Assembly (NCBI GenBank): GCA_964443675.1
Contig: CAYUDN010000003.1
Span: 1 to 58,447, forward strand
DNA length: 58,447 bases
Direction of reading: 5' to 3'
From: an uncultured Candidatus Saccharibacteria bacterium
Lineage (GTDB): Bacteria > Patescibacteriota > Minisyncoccia > Phycocordibacterales > UBA5272
Part shown: one piece after another, positions 2,791-58,447 of the stretch
How the letters are laid out: every line of letters begins with the position of its first letter
Position numbering within the stretch: position 1 is the stretch's first letter
Position numbers and translations under genes: made by a program
Notes under the pieces: model-generated
The model's input: only the letters and a program-made list of their open reading frames with translations
What the model was told of the DNA's origin: nothing
Databases searched by the model: none

Positions 2791-3710
2791 AGCAAGCACG
2801 CTTCAATCTTGCCAAGATGGCGATAATTATCGAGCCTGAAGCTTTCCATGGTGAATCCATCAATATCGGTGACTGCAGGGTCAATCCATAAAGAGGGAGG
2901 CTCTGATGGTTTTCTTTGTAGCTGCTCTTCCACTTGTTGGAGGTGTCCTTTAGTCGCATCAATCTCTCCACTTGGAGTAATACTAGCGACGTAGATGTGG
3001 CAATCTTCAAGGGTAATGATGAGTTCACCAGGAATCATGTCCACACATTGTGCAACCATGTGAAGCAAGAGTGCATAGGATGCAATATTGAAAGGCACCC
3101 CCAGGAACATGTCACATGAACGTTGATCCATGGAAAGGTCGAGATATTTCTTCCCGTTACCACTTCGTACGAAGAACTGCATCTTCATATGACACGGAGG
3201 CAGGCACATATCGTTAAGCTCGCCTGGATTCCAGGCGATAACGATGTGGTACCTCGAGTACGGGTCTTCGCGCAGCTGGTTGATCACTTTTGCGATCTGA
3301 TCAACGGATGTTCCGTCATTCTTTTTCCAGTCACGCCACTGTGCTCCGTAGATACGACCACAGTCGCCAAGGGACAATGCTTTACCTTCTCGTGCAAAAC
3401 GCGCCTGATCGTTCGTCCAGATATTTTTTTCGTTATCTGGTTTGCCGATAAATCGATTGAGTGTGACTATGTTCAGACGATTTCCTGTTTCTTTGCCGGC
3501 ATCAAGGAACCAAAGTAGTTCGGCGGCAACTACACGGAAAGCGAGAAACTTCGTGGTAATCGCAGGGAATCCTTCTTGTAGGTTAAATCGCATCTGATGT
3601 GCAAAGATTGCTTTTGTGACACCATTTCTTGTGGAGCGCACGTCACCAGAAGAAAGTGTTCGACGAAGTGCGTCAAGGTACTGTTGTTCGTTACGGTTAA
3701 CGGTGTTCAT
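2787..3710 (-). CDS. thyA: thymidylate synthase (ThyA type)
   Basis: ORF 2787..3785, with the start moved to ATG 3710 behind AGGAG. ThyA motifs RTLSSGDVRSTRNG, AELLWFL, IYGAQWR, LPPCH, DMFLGVPFNIASYALL. Confidence 0.9.
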   Translation of the reverse strand: MNTVNRNEQQYLDALRRTLSSGDVRSTRNGVTKAIFAHQMRFNLQEGFPAITTKFLAFRVVAAELLWFLDAGKETGNRLNIVTLNRFIGKPDNEKNIWTNDQARFAREGKALSLGDCGRIYGAQWRDWKKNDGTSVDQIAKVINQLREDPYSRYHIVIAWNPGELNDMCLPPCHMKMQFFVRSGNGKKYLDLSMDQRSCDMFLGVPFNIASYALLLHMVAQCVDMIPGELIITLEDCHIYVASITPSGEIDATKGHLQQVEEQLQRKPSEPPSLWIDPAVTDIDGFTMESFRLDNYRHLGKIEACLL

Positions 3711-23870: not shown

Positions 23871-24003
23871 CAGATAACAGATACGCTTTGCTATAGATGA
23901 CAGAGTACAGAAATAAAGAAATAGAAAGAGCGGCGCCTACGGCGCCGCTCTTCTTTGTTATCTGTTAACAAAGTGGTCTGTTATCTGTCTATCTGTGTTC
24001 TAT
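23868..24003. repeat. ACAGA-rich palindromic intergenic element around a GC hairpin
   Basis: Left arm TAACAGATAACAGA...ACAGAGTACAGA, core AGAGCGGCGCC-TAC-GGCGCCGCTCT, right arm GTTATCTGTT...GTCTGTTATCTGTCTATCTGT. Confidence 0.8.
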
Positions 24004-29911: not shown

Positions 29912-30258
29912 AGGAAGCAACACAACCCCGCCAACGGGATCCCGTTTCGGCGGGGTCTTTTTTTGCTTATTTCGTAACTATATCTACTCTAGTTGTTAGA
30001 CTGGTGGAGAGATTCGGCGATTGTTAAGGTGTTTTATTTTATCACTTCGTGATTCATACAACACTCGTGAACTTAGCCTAAAGAAAAAGCGTCAAAATCT
30101 TATAAAGAAAAGTCAGGAAGAAAGCTTTTCTTTATAAGATTTCGTAGACCGCTTTTTCGTTCGAATCTCCACGTATGACACGCAGGTGTCATACTCCAAG
30201 TACTCACTGATAACACAATATCCCATTAGGAGTACCTAAAGGGATATTGTGTTATCAG

Positions 30259-30647
30259 TGGAGGTGGGGAGATTCGAACTCCCGTGTAACAAGGTATGAA
30301 GTATGCATCTACTGTGCGTAGTTTGCTTGGTTGATGTTCGCATGAAGTCTTATGAGCAAACAAAATAACTTCATGCTAAGCATTATTCTTTCGAATGGTG
30401 TGCTATGCAACACATCATTCTACATCTTCTGTTATATTGCCCAGTATCTTCCCGGAGATACGAAAGAAGTGGACACCAGATTGGCGTAGATTACGCGAAT
30501 GCTGGAACTAGCCCTGCCATATAAGGTGAAGGGATAGCCTTGCCAGTTGACTTTGCAACATGGTTTCTCAAACGTTAACGAGTGCTTGAGAACTCTCGGC
30601 ATAGCACATAGTTCATGATCTTATTATCGATGCCAAAGTACACCCCC
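30259..30647 (-). ncRNA. ssrA: tmRNA (SsrA)
   Basis: 5' GGGGGTGTACTTTGGCATCGA pairs with 3' ...GGGAGTTCGAATCTCCCCACCTCCA (tRNA-Ala-like acceptor with G3-U). The candidate tag ORF GCA AAG...GCG TAA (30556 down to 30491) gives AKSTGKAIPSPYMAGLVPAFA. smpB lies immediately upstream. Confidence 0.9.
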
Positions 30648-33439: not shown

Positions 33440-33463
33440 TTCATTCGCAGATTATGCTCAAGG

Positions 33464-33536
33464 TGCATCCACCAGGACTCGAACCTGGGACCAGACGTGT
33501 ATAAGACGTCCGCTCTACCAACTGAGCTATGGATGC
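33464..33536 (-). tRNA. tRNA-Ile (anticodon UAU)
   Basis: Hand-folded 73-nt cloverleaf with all four stems fully Watson-Crick: GCATCCA/TGGATGC, GCTC/GAGC, GACGT/ACGTC, CCAGG/CCTGG. Anticodon loop CT-TAT-AC, discriminator A. Confidence 0.85.
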
Positions 33537-45217: not shown

Positions 45218-45310
45218 GCGGACAAAACGCGGACAGACGCGGAAGTGACGCGGAAAAATACAGGCGAAAGGCGGAAAAGACGCGGACGAAACGCAGACAA
45301 AACGCGGAAA
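45218..45310. repeat. phased tandem array of about nine CGCGGA(C/A) units
   Basis: Units start at about 45217, 45228, 45238, 45249, 45270, 45281, 45292 and 45303, with one degenerate unit near 45260. The mean period is about 10.75 bp. Confidence 0.8.
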
Positions 45311-45413
45311 ACATACAGAAGGACAGCTGAGAATGATTTGAATATTCTTTTGTGGTTAGTTCTTAGGTTCATTGTTTTTTGTTTGGGCGGTCGCGAAGCG
45401 ACTGCTCCCTGGA

Positions 45414-45490: not shown

Positions 45491-45550
45491 GTTTTGTTGT
45501 CTAATCTGCGATAGTATTGACAGCATTCAAGCAAGATGTATACTGTAATC

Positions 45551-45602
45551 ATCACCACGAAAGAGACCCTTATGAAGTTCCGTCTTCATTGGGGGCTTTT
45601 TT
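45551..45602 (+). ncRNA. candidate small RNA A, convergent with NYN gene 1
   Basis: TTGACA 45517-45522, 16 nt, TATACT 45539-45544. A hairpin (ATGAAG/CTTCAT plus a CCC/GGG extension) is followed by T6, which abuts the stop codon of the NYN gene. Confidence 0.4.
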
Positions 45603-46092
45603 ATTGTAGGTTATTTTTCTGATCGTTGATATAAAATATTTTTGCTGCTGTCCTCTTTAGTAAGATGGAGCATTTCTTTTCTCTTGCTGGGGAGATGACA
45701 CCAAGTAGTCTTTTTTCTGAAGCAACGAAAGCAACAAGTGGAGCATAATCACCGTCACTCGAAACAAGTAGCATCTTATCGTATGTGTGAGTGTAGAAAT
45801 CTTGTGTAGCCTTAAGAACAAGGTCAGCATCGCAATTGCCTTTTGGTTTGCCGTTGTTATCGTATACCACTTCTTTAAAAATCAAAACATAACCACACTC
45901 TTGTAGATGGCTATACAGCTTGCCATACTTAGGGACATTTCCTATAAAAAGGTATGCAGTAGTGATGTTGAACTTTTCTGTAAGCCAGACCCTTAGTTTC
46001 TTGTAGTCAAGCTCCCAACTAAGACTGTTCATTCCTTGGTGCAAGTTGGCACCATCTATGTATGCATAGTTGTTTTCTTTACGCGATTTCAT
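45601..46092 (-). CDS. NYN domain (LabA/DUF88-like) predicted RNase, paralog 1
   Basis: Start set at ATG 46092 (MKSRKENNYAYIDGANL...LLVSSDGDYAPLV). Confidence 0.75.
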   Translation of the reverse strand: MKSRKENNYAYIDGANLHQGMNSLSWELDYKKLRVWLTEKFNITTAYLFIGNVPKYGKLYSHLQECGYVLIFKEVVYDNNGKPKGNCDADLVLKATQDFYTHTYDKMLLVSSDGDYAPLVAFVASEKRLLGVISPAREKKCSILLKRTAAKIFYINDQKNNLQ

Positions 46093-46224
46093 AACAACAA
46101 GTGTATCATGAAGGGAGTAGAGCACAGATGACAGATAACAGACCGCTTCGCTTACAGATGACAGATCGCTACGCTGACAGAATACAGACGACAGACCGCT
46201 CCTCTGTATTTATCTGTACTCTGT
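46069..46224 (-). repeat. 156-bp cassette, copy 1 (155/156 identical to 46822-46977)
   Basis: Covers the first 8 codons of the NYN gene, the upstream 5' region, and an ACAGA-rich element. Confidence 0.9.
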
Positions 46225-46271
46225 TGTCTATCCGCGATTGACATTTTTTTTTATCTCTTTATACTGTGTAC

Positions 46272-46329
46272 ATATCCACACGAAAAGGGGTCCAAAAGGT
46301 GAAGGTGCCTAAGGCACCCTTTTCTTTTT
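46272..46329 (+). ncRNA. candidate small RNA B, convergent with and overlapping the 3' end of NYN gene 2
   Basis: TTGACA 46238-46243, 16 nt, TATACT 46260-46265. Hairpin GGTGCC-TAA-GGCACC plus a T-run. The 5' part (ATCCACACGAAAAGGGG) resembles RNA A (ATCACCACGAAAGAGA). Confidence 0.4.
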
Positions 46330-46845
46330 GTCATTTTTCATTGCTATTTTTTCTTGTACTGCACTATCATCAAGATAGGCGAAATATTTGTTGGAGAGTT
46401 CGTTATAAAGAGAAGATTTAAATTTTTTATTAGGGAACAATATTTTCCGGAATCTTTCTTTCTTCACTAAGTAGTCAACAACCTTTTTATAGTCACCGTC
46501 TCCAGAAACAAGAAGAACTTTGTTGAAATTTTCGCTGTTATCAATTATGTTCTTCATTATTTCAAAGACGATATCAGTATCCACGTTCCCTTTCTTCTGT
46601 GATTGTAGTGCAGTGTTATGCTCTTTAAACAAGACTATAAAACCAGCTTTTTGTAGTTTTGTGTAAAGATTTTGTTGGTCTTCGTCGATATATCCAAAAA
46701 AGTAGTACGCTTCTACGACGTGATATTTGTCTCGCAGGTAAGTTCGAAGTCGATAATGATCTGTTTTCCAATTATTGATAGTAGTACCAAGGTGTAGGTT
46801 TTGTCCATCGATGAAGGCGAGGTTGTTTTCTTTACGCGATTTCAT
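46309..46845 (-). CDS. NYN domain (LabA/DUF88-like) predicted RNase, paralog 2
   Basis: Start set at ATG 46845 (MKSRKENNLAFIDGQNL...LLVSGDGDYKKVV). Confidence 0.75.
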   Translation of the reverse strand: MKSRKENNLAFIDGQNLHLGTTINNWKTDHYRLRTYLRDKYHVVEAYYFFGYIDEDQQNLYTKLQKAGFIVLFKEHNTALQSQKKGNVDTDIVFEIMKNIIDNSENFNKVLLVSGDGDYKKVVDYLVKKERFRKILFPNKKFKSSLYNELSNKYFAYLDDSAVQEKIAMKNDKKKRVP

Positions 46846-46977
46846 AACAACAAGTGTATCATGAAGGGAGCAGAGCACAGATGACAGATAACAGACCGCT
46901 TCGCTTACAGATGACAGATCGCTACGCTGACAGAATACAGACGACAGACCGCTCCTCTGTATTTATCTGTACTCTGT
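46822..46977 (-). repeat. 156-bp cassette, copy 2
   Basis: Differs from 46069-46224 by a single T/C. Confidence 0.9.
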
Positions 46978-47090
46978 CAGCAAAGCGGGTCTGTACTCTG
47001 TTGTCTATCTGTATTCTTTCAGCGAAGCGATCTGTACTCTGTTGTCTGTCTATCTGTACTCTGTAGTCTTTCAGCACAGCGGGCTGTGTA
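46879..47090. repeat. large ACAGA/TCTGT palindromic element in a divergent promoter region
   Basis: The left half is rich in ACAGA units. The right half carries four exact TCTGTACTCTGT 12-mers (46966, 46990, 47031, 47053). Confidence 0.8.
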
Positions 47091-57967: not shown

Positions 57968-58171
57968 AGGGGCTACTTCTTACTTTATGCAAAGTAAGTA
58001 GTTATCGTAGTCATTTGAAAAAATAATACGAAGCTACTTTTGAAAAATATACATCAGTTTATTTTTCAAAAGGTGACGCTTCAAATTACATTACACAATA
58101 AAGTGCTTGTCCGTTACTTTTTTTCGGAAAAGTAATTAGGACGTTTTTGTTTTTCTTTTGTCACACTCTAT

Positions 58172-58447
58172 ATAAATAGAGTTTGATCCTAGCTCAGGAT
58201 GAACGCTGGCGGTGTGGATAAGGCATGCAAGTTGAACGGAACTAATCACATGGAAGTACTAAGCAAGTTAAAGTAGCAATACGGCAATAAGCGAAGTATG
58301 GAAGCGTGACAGTTTAGTAGCAAACGAGGTAGTAATATTTAGGAACGCACCCCGAAGTCGTGAATAGCCTTTCGAAAGGAAGAGTAATACACGATGGTAC
58401 CGCAAGGTTAAAGATTTATCGCTTCGGGAGCGGCTTAAACAGTATCA
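58172..58447 (+). rRNA. rrs: 16S ribosomal RNA, 5' part (runs off the window)
   Basis: AGAGTTTGATCCTAGCTCAGGATGAACGCTGGCGGTGTGGATAAGGCATGCAAGTTGAACGG. The helix-6/V1 region looks longer than in E. coli, and the GGCGGACGGGTGAGTAA region is divergent (GTAGCAAACGAGGTAGTAAT). Confidence 0.9.

Follow-up and report, generated by a model that had tools for sequence, protein, structure and literature searches.

Two conserved small RNA families encoded convergently with LabA-like NYN nuclease genes in Patescibacteria: a candidate toxin-antitoxin-like module

A contig of 58,447 nucleotides (nt) from an uncultured Candidatus Saccharibacteria bacterium (GenBank assembly GCA_964443675.1, contig CAYUDN010000003.1, positions 1 to 58,447 of the forward strand; hereafter the window) carries two minus-strand genes for LabA-like NYN-domain proteins and, downstream of each, a short RNA gene on the opposite strand. 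Sequence comparison establishes two new small RNA (sRNA) families, each with its own RNA gene, structure, strand, promoter, one-to-one linkage to the cognate NYN gene and mobility. The reading we favour, with a probability somewhat above one half (about 0.55), is that of a self-contained module in which the sRNA would antagonise its cognate NYN nuclease in a toxin-antitoxin (TA)-like manner, either by antisense pairing, by binding or by both. To our knowledge, almost no regulatory RNAs, TA systems or defence systems have been characterised experimentally in the candidate phyla radiation (CPR)/Patescibacteria.

The comparison covered 161 sequences, consisting of the window and 160 loci, of which 80 with NYN family A were taken from species-representative genomes and 80 with family B from metagenomes. 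For the detection of the RNA, the DNA past the NYN stop codon was read on the opposite strand at each locus, and two covariance models, R1 for the type-A RNA and R2 for the type-B RNA, were built from the two locus alignments. The type-A model was found at the NYN 3′ end in 80/80 loci (79 at 50–88 bits and one variant at 31.8 bits) and the type-B model in 81/81 loci (64–89 bits). Within the window, R1 detected a single type-A copy at 46270–46334 (75.2 bits, E = 2.9e-14) and R2 a single type-B copy at 45547–45612 (77.6 bits, E = 3.8e-16). The search for the RNA and its promoter beside the NYN genes of relatives had been set beforehand as the refuting test for the preliminary description of this region, and both were found at every locus examined, so that the promoter-RNA-terminator unit recurs at the equivalent position in about 160 independent loci. 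Rfam 15 gave no relevant match in the window at gathering score or E ≤ 10, and likewise none at gathering score across 20 loci.

Both RNA types have a conserved layout of about 57 nt with a 5′ tail, a long imperfect hairpin and a U-run. After the promoter, the consensus reads gUAUCmAkAC-GAAAAGGGAUCC-GAAM-GGUGUUAGUGCC-UWA-GGAGCCCUUUUC-UUUU for type A and AUmACyAC-GAAAAAGACCCUU-AUGGAG-UUCCGU-CUCCAU-CGGGGGCUUUUUC-UUUU for type B. In the window, where the start and end of both RNAs are predicted, the type-A sRNA (46272–46329, plus strand, ~58 nt) comprises the 5′ tail AUAUCCACAC, P1 GAAAAGGG/CCCUUUUC followed by a mismatch, CC/GG, the internal loop AAAA/UAA (GAAM/UWA in the family), P2 GGU/GCC and the U-run, while the type-B sRNA (45551–45606, plus strand, ~55 nt) comprises the 5′ tail AUCACCAC, P1 GAAAGAG/CUUUUUU with an A·G mismatch, CCC/GGG, a 6-bp stem AUGAAG/CUUCAU, the loop UUCCGU and the U-run. 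The hairpin-plus-T-run terminators described previously are present at 45582–45596 and 46304–46318; the second RNA had been drawn as a simple GGUGCC-UAA-GGCACC hairpin, which the family structure replaces by a longer hairpin with an internal loop. For both window RNAs the predicted fold matches the family structure, with minimum free energies of −18.5 kcal/mol on the plus versus −11.1 kcal/mol on the minus strand for type B (z = −3.5) and of −18.1 versus −16.3 kcal/mol for type A.

The fold is backed by covariation, since 94.9% of the cells are paired in type A with compensatory changes in 9/15 pairs, and 99.2% in type B with compensatory changes in 10/17 pairs; none of 500 column shuffles matched the observed covariation in either type, and slid controls lay far lower. 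Also the strand can be read from the alignments. Type A contains the G·U pairs U31·G38 (62/78 sequences) and G32·U37 (57 sequences) and type B the pair U24·G45 (68/75 sequences). Read on the NYN strand, these frequent pairs would turn into A·C mismatches; the fold is thus selected on the strand opposite to NYN. Covariance scores on the reverse strand were at most 31 bits. Several known motifs were considered for the type-A hairpin and rejected: a hairpin of the CC-GNRA-GG kind known from signal recognition particle RNA does not fit, because the covariation supports pairing of G29G30 with C39C40 and of C23C24 with G44G45, and for the internal loop both sarcin-ricin-loop mimicry and a standard K-turn misfit in strand order and loop sizes, as judged by inspection. 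This loop is reminiscent of a UAA/GAN motif. An integron attC-like site was dismissed by reasoning, as it misfits with a conserved promoter and a conserved sequence.

The plus-strand TTGACA-16-TATACT promoters of the preliminary description are both present with 11/12 consensus matches each. The promoter of the type-B sRNA extends from 45517 to 45544 (−35 box TTGACA at 45517–45522, 16-nt spacer, −10 box TATACT at 45539–45544), that of the type-A sRNA from 46238 to 46265 (TTGACA at 46238–46243, 16-nt spacer, TATACT at 46260–46265). Across the loci, the boxes TTGACw and TAnAAT are kept at a fixed distance from the RNA. A match of at least 9/12 occurs in 66/80 type-A and 70/74 type-B loci compared to 9% of random windows, and the type-A columns of the 80 loci read T77/T76/G73 for the −35 box and T75/A78/...T78 for the −10 box. 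From the end of the −10 box to 'ACG', the distance is 14 nt in 59/80 type-A and 12–13 nt in 64/74 type-B loci. With this fixed distance, transcription would begin at the conserved purine that precedes UAUC and yield RNAs of about 55–58 nt. Sites of the form TTGACA-N16-18-TAnnnT are few in the 58-kb window (13), and several of them, checked by coordinate, lie directly upstream of tRNA genes or open reading frames (ORFs); matches this strong therefore seem to be real promoters in this genome.

These data bear on two simpler explanations. According to the first, the element would be only a conserved bidirectional terminator, and the promoter-like boxes would have no dedicated product. An A-tract and a U-tract flank the hairpin so that termination is possible both ways, R1 and R2 match ordinary terminators elsewhere in the window weakly, and metatranscriptome contigs described below span from upstream of the predicted start to the terminator. 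Ordinary terminators, however, are not conserved in sequence over phylum-level distances. The −35 and −10 boxes at fixed distance, the conservation of the 5′ tail outside the hairpin and of the internal loops, the G·U pairs favouring the strand opposite to NYN, and a distant LabA-like NYN gene that lacks the element (locus L035) speak against this explanation as well, and we regard it as very improbable. The second explanation, to which we attach practically no weight, is that the short transcripts encode peptides acting as type I-like hydrophobic toxins, for example MKFRLHWGLFYCRLFF from position 45572. Both window RNAs do contain AUG or GUG with a short F/L-rich frame; yet the type-B AUG belongs to a covarying stem, many loci have AUA, ACG, GCA or another triplet in its place, no start codon is conserved in type A, and the frames continue through the terminator.

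The position of the NYN stop codon differs between loci. About half of the type-A loci have it within the UWA internal loop, and in the others it falls in the U-run or past the RNA. Among the type-B loci, 38 have it behind CCC and 12 within the 5′ tail, which leads to overlap of the whole RNA; in the remainder it is located at or past the U-run. Because the stop codon slides across the RNA, coding cannot account for the RNA conservation. The C-terminal tails of the NYN proteins (...KKKRAP*, ...KEKAPDGDGTP*) rather look conserved because they are antisense translations of the RNA, and the last ~6 codons of the window NYN-A (KKKRVP*) are the antisense reading of the 3′ half of its RNA. As had been noticed from the sequence alone, both stop codons abut or overlap the terminators. 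The stop of NYN-A (46309–46311; NYN2 of the earlier numbering) lies inside the hairpin, in the UAA internal loop, so that ~20 nt of its coding sequence are antisense to the RNA as proposed, and the stop of NYN-B (45601–45603; NYN1) falls within the type-B U-run. In the other loci, this overlap in cis ranges from 0 to ~55 nt and includes the last 6–20 codons in many genomes. At both window sites, the G+C-containing hairpin has an A-tract on its 5′ side and a U-run on its 3′ side, with conserved GAAAA...UUUUC flanks, as is typical of an intrinsic bidirectional terminator. Owing to the tracts on both sides, both transcripts should end there; from this common terminator it can be deduced that in all loci, regardless of the stop codon position, the sRNA would be complementary to the last ~45–50 nt of the NYN mRNA.

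The two NYN genes had been predicted correctly as LabA/DUF88-like. The minus-strand ORFs 45601–46092 (NYN-B, 163 amino acids from ATG) and 46309–46845 (NYN-A, 178 amino acids) match PF01936 with E = 1.2e-13 and 1.9e-15 (52.3 and 58.1 bits, above the gathering cut-off of 24.2 bits), and the two proteins are 34% identical, in line with the 'about one-third' estimated by eye. By sequence comparison, they belong to two old subfamilies. Family A comprises 2,798 clusters with 56–72% identity across the fetched loci, and its record labels include Paceibacterota, Peregrinibacteria/Peribacteria, Minisyncoccia, Nomura-, Vogel-, Taylor- and Kaiserbacteria, others, and one Spirochaetia genome; family B comprises 3,460 clusters with 58–83% identity across the fetched metagenome loci. 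Residues of the PIN-like metal site are invariant in family A (D13, N16, D89, D91, S114, D116), as are D13, N16, D88, D90, S112, D113 and D115 in family B, and the predicted catalytic motifs DG.N, GN.D.D and S.DGD show no variation in either family. An AlphaFold2 model of NYN-A (pLDDT 80.4, pTM 0.79) has a PIN-like alpha/beta fold. The only significant match of this model in a Foldseek search of the PDB was 2QIP (E = 9e-9, TM 0.71/0.77), the structure of VPA0982, a LabA-like protein without assigned function; the structure search gave nothing informative beyond it, and a profile search also matched 2qip_A (E = 3.5e-10). NYN-A and NYN-B thus share sequence and fold membership with LabA/COG1432 (PF01936, 2QIP) and keep the acidic active-site residues. 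A 2017 survey of the PIN superfamily (PMC5499597) gives bacterial LabA-like NYN proteins as uncharacterised with respect to nuclease function. NCBIfam gave no match for the NYN proteins. With PADLOC-DB 2.0, only partial matches were obtained, at the domain level to PDLC01154 'NYN LabA-like' (E = 4e-11 and 7e-4) and for NYN-B to HEC-09 (E = 3e-7).

The region upstream of the NYN genes has a different history from the gene bodies. A ~750-bp tandem duplication of the whole unit had been proposed, and this has to be rejected: the 753-nt periodicity stems from a 187-nt direct repeat, which is made up of 132 nt in front of each NYN gene and its first 18 codons. The upstream regions of NYN-B (46093–46224, minus strand) and NYN-A (46846–46977, minus strand) are twins with 131/132 identical nt, and the first codons are identical at 43/55 nt, whereas the gene bodies past the first codons share only ~46% nucleotide identity and the RNAs belong to two distinct old families. 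Recent homogenisation is thus confined to the 132-nt upstream region and the first codons, while the bodies are old paralogs; near-identical upstream regions beside diverged bodies suggest recent gene conversion or promoter swapping, and via their common upstream region both nucleases are probably co-regulated. The upstream regions contain candidate extended −10 boxes at 46100–46108 (TGATACACT, 7 nt before the ATG of NYN-B) and at 46853–46861 for NYN-A. In 55/75 type-A NYN loci, a TAnnnT box (extended −10, TGnTAnAAT-like) ends 4–9 nt ahead of the start codon, and the NYN genes lack a Shine-Dalgarno sequence in the type-A loci and in the window upstream regions. The position of the extended −10 box makes it probable that the NYN mRNA is leaderless. 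The upstream context TGTTGTCTA described as common to both sRNA promoters is indeed repeated, but it is part of a short dispersed repeat across the window. This repeat, TCTGTACTCTGT and relatives, occurs ten times, apparently intergenic, at 23900, 30675, 34938, 46213, 46966, 46990, 47031, 47053, 48866 and 48953, often in inverted or tandem clusters, e.g. 46124–46188 and 46966–47087.

RNA type and protein subfamily go together. Across all loci scored, the RNA type tracks the NYN subfamily, and cross-type RNA scores are at most 35 bits compared to ~75–89 bits for the cognate type. Every module of the window and its relatives has a single RNA copy, located downstream on the opposite strand. A second NYN gene or fragment is present in 7/161 sequences, and the extra diverged tandem NYN paralogs (L003, L052, L109, L121) each have their own RNA variant. 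These further RNA types agree in their 5′ tail (AUAUCAnnAyG) and in the A·G mismatch of P1 and differ in the apical domain. The distant LabA-like NYN gene of L035 lacks such an RNA element, indicating that the RNA partnership is specific to these CPR subfamilies. In a G+C-rich viral contig (L168, 3520–3585, minus strand), the type-A apical motif, GCGC-AAAC-GG-AGAGAU-ACC-UAA-GCGC, is duplicated, with one copy forming a separate hairpin just upstream of the main RNA; this doubling hints that the apical motif might be an autonomous binding unit.

As judged from its genomic surroundings, the module is an accessory and mobile, self-contained two-gene unit. The 150 flanking ORFs match 119 Pfam families, none of them more than five times, and neither conserved synteny nor a conserved protein partner was found among these ORFs. 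One type-B module adjoins a large serine recombinase, type IV secretion system coupling proteins and ArdC, a region resembling an integrative and conjugative element (ICE), and in another region two type-A modules are present, of which one has a NYN gene truncated at the N-terminal end. NYN-A relatives with 45–54% identity are encoded on four IMG/VR viral contigs. All four contigs carry a type-A-like RNA at the equivalent position; it retains the CGAACGG...ACCUAAG core and shows compensatory changes in P1. In one of the contigs (L165, 182–5904), the module stands as a moron within a block of phage head genes in the order SPP1-type portal, Mu-F-like, NUDIX, NYN plus sRNA module, DUF4355 scaffold. 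A complete type-A module (RNA 70 bits) is also present in a 2.03-Mb contig of a Spirochaetia genome not labelled as CPR (L065), so that, if this record is not a chimera, the module seems to have been transferred outside Patescibacteria. At ~16/120 modules, tRNA genes with a variety of identities are found at a distance of up to 400 nt, compared to a rough expectation of ~4 from typical tRNA density; they are located upstream in L032, L034, L056, L059, L120 and L145 and downstream in L004, L008, L022, L037, L076 and others. Furthermore, promoter and RNA are retained where NYN genes are truncated or lost (L161/L003, L146, L099 with a remnant ORF only, and L132 with a second degenerate copy). The corresponding orphan or semi-orphan sRNA genes are located at 1369–1560 in L099, 4345–4737 in L161, 2059–2400 in L146 and 3085–3150 in L132. 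An intact A- or B-type NYN gene without the RNA was not found among the loci examined.

Transcription of the region in relatives is documented by public assemblies, whereas RNA-seq runs were found neither for the window nor for L161. Parts of locus L145 are contained in four metatranscriptome assemblies. Two contigs from independent runs (2977–3195 and 2980–3203) stop exactly at the sRNA terminator and leave the NYN body uncovered, and a third contig covers the NYN 3′ end and the RNA. A wastewater RNA-seq contig includes the type-B RNA of a relative. From these contigs, transcription of the region and a boundary at the hairpin are evident, but not the predicted 57-nt species itself.

For the favoured TA-like module, the following mechanism is proposed. 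A LabA-like NYN metallonuclease of the PIN superfamily would be produced, its mRNA being probably leaderless and made from an extended −10 promoter, and a ~57-nt structured RNA would be transcribed convergently from a near-consensus sigma-70 promoter, with both transcripts ending in the one common bidirectional hairpin terminator. The RNA could then act by antisense pairing with the 3′ end of the NYN mRNA, in a type I manner, by direct contact in which the protein recognises the conserved tail, P1 and internal-loop features of its own RNA type, in a type III manner, or by both. The whole would form an addictive or abortive-infection-type unit moving among CPR genomes and phages. Transcription of the short species, toxicity of NYN and its antagonism by the RNA are what we infer here; such a TA or RNA-guarded nuclease would agree with the lack of synteny, the presence in phages and an ICE-like region, the cognate RNA types and the decayed NYN genes that keep their RNA. 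Of the two routes, direct protein recognition is suggested by the conserved unpaired tail, the A·G mismatch and the GAAM/UWA loop, which exceed what antisense pairing or termination needs, as well as by the retention of these features in distant phage copies and the match of RNA type and subfamily, which look type III-like.

The same excess of conserved features (tail AUAUCAnnAyG, A·G mismatch, GAAM/UWA loop kept even in the phage relatives with 45–54% identity) and the strict tracking of the protein subfamily by the RNA type would also be expected if the sRNA was a cofactor of NYN in a functional ribonucleoprotein, as scaffold, as specificity subunit or as short guide via its 7–10-nt single-stranded 5′ tail. 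We consider such a particle improbable. The tail is short and nearly invariant, unlike a variable guide, and orphan RNAs beside dead NYN genes are easier to explain by an antidote than by a cofactor. Moreover, target complementarity was not found. When the sRNA 5′ tail was paired in the manner of par with the 5′ region of NYN, RNAduplex energies were practically equal for cognate and non-cognate pairs, with −7.17 versus −7.05 in type A and −5.46 versus −5.24 in type B. A GUAUCA similarity upstream of the window NYN was rejected as pairing site, because it is the −10 box of NYN itself read backwards.

Several points weigh against a TA-like function. We know of no LabA-like NYN protein with demonstrated toxicity, and in curated phage and plasmid collections no NYN homolog was found. 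Covariation of the stem would be expected from a plain terminator, too. The transcript contigs are unstranded and reach upstream of the predicted sRNA start. In addition, for a TA toxin 56–83% protein identity between deeply separated CPR lineages is unusually high and would also fit a constrained housekeeping role, and the tRNA genes beside the modules, which fit insertion as an island, equally fit a role of NYN in tRNA or rRNA processing. The last two points also support a rival in which NYN is a housekeeping RNA-processing nuclease, for tRNA/rRNA maturation or mRNA decay, and the sRNA tunes its expression by 3′-end pairing and RNase III, with no addiction or defence involved. Bacterial NYN domains have in fact been predicted from gene neighbourhoods to serve in tRNA/rRNA processing (PMC5499597). 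On the other side stand the lack of a conserved neighbourhood with flanking tRNAs of many identities, the several paralogous modules per genome each with its own RNA type, and the occurrence of modules in a phage head-gene block and an ICE-like region together with decayed copies. We judge this housekeeping throttle to be unlikely. It is nevertheless the most plausible rival, followed in descending order by the ribonucleoprotein, the mere terminator and the peptide gene.

The favoured TA-like module shares features with several known systems. Convergent, 3′-overlapping RNAs with a bidirectional intrinsic terminator are known from the type I systems par/Fst-RNA II (pAD1) as well as txpA/RatA and bsrG/SR4 of Bacillus subtilis, whose antitoxins have a single-stranded 5′ tail and a terminator hairpin with bulges or mismatches in the stems; RNA II has a length of ~65 nt. 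The NYN modules resemble them in the convergent arrangement of mRNA and short RNA, the common terminator and the tail-plus-hairpin layout, and as in type I systems the RNA is complementary to the mRNA of the putative toxin, directly visible for the overlap in cis and presumed from the common terminator for the overlap in the 3′ untranslated region. They differ from the par type in that the putative toxin is a NYN nuclease of 163–178 amino acids instead of a small membrane peptide and that the RNA sequence is conserved over very large evolutionary distances; the second complementarity at the 5′ end, present in par, was tested here and not found. In SymE/SymR and RalR/RalA, a nuclease-type toxin is paired with a cis-encoded antisense RNA overlapping at the 5′ end or within the coding sequence. 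The present modules share this pairing of a nuclease-type protein with an antisense RNA, but the toxin folds there are others and the overlap here is at the 3′ end and variable (0 to ~55 nt of coding sequence).

In type III and abortive infection systems such as ToxIN, CptIN, TenpIN and AbiF with its ncRNA, a tandem-repeat RNA is encoded upstream on the same strand and processed by the toxin. Common to these systems and the NYN modules are a (here predicted) endoribonuclease with a cognate structured RNA, several types that do not cross-match, a strong RNA promoter, and carriage by mobile elements and phages. In contrast to them, the RNA described here is single-copy, convergent and downstream, and the protein has a NYN/PIN-like fold instead of that of ToxN or HEPN; only L168 with its second copy of the apical motif comes close to a type III array. 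VapBC systems consist of a PIN-domain toxin and a protein antitoxin encoded upstream in an operon. They resemble our modules as small mobile two-gene units with a nuclease of the PIN-like superfamily (classification in PMC5499597). Unlike VapBC, no conserved protein partner is present next to these NYN genes. Neither a NYN/LabA-sRNA pairing nor NYN toxins with RNA antitoxins were found described in the full-text literature searched.

From these comparisons, a more specific and more tentative proposal can be made, which we hold possible but rather doubtful. The modules may represent an unrecognised class of RNA-antitoxin TA or abortive-infection systems, widespread in CPR and phages, in which the RNA both binds and silences the NYN RNase and is antisense to its mRNA; this would be a type I/III hybrid with orthogonal specificities, and recognition would proceed via the 5′ tail, the A·G-containing P1 and the type-specific apical domain (in type A the UAA/GAN-like loop). 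If the proposed function holds, this would be a new form of RNA-antitoxin TA system, and as an antidote the RNA would stand for a new architecture with a PIN-superfamily toxin; as a cofactor, it would define a new small ribonucleoprotein nuclease. The two RNA families, probably joined by more, are strongly supported as new sRNA families and link strictly one to one with a LabA-like NYN subfamily of uncharacterised nuclease function. Several orthogonal RNA-protein pairs are available that are compact enough for work in Escherichia coli, and the covariance models would annotate hundreds to thousands of intergenic regions that are presently blank.

Outside the modules, the window contains a tRNA-Ile gene with anticodon UAU (33462–33536), a full-length tmRNA gene (30256–30647) and the 5′ end of a 16S rRNA gene (58171–58447). 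A sigma-70 promoter with a full 12/12 matches (45203–45175) precedes a G+C-rich lipoprotein-like gene on the minus strand (43972–~45040), and upstream of this gene GCGGA(C/A)AAACGCGGA repeats with a period of ~11 nt are located at 45218–45312.

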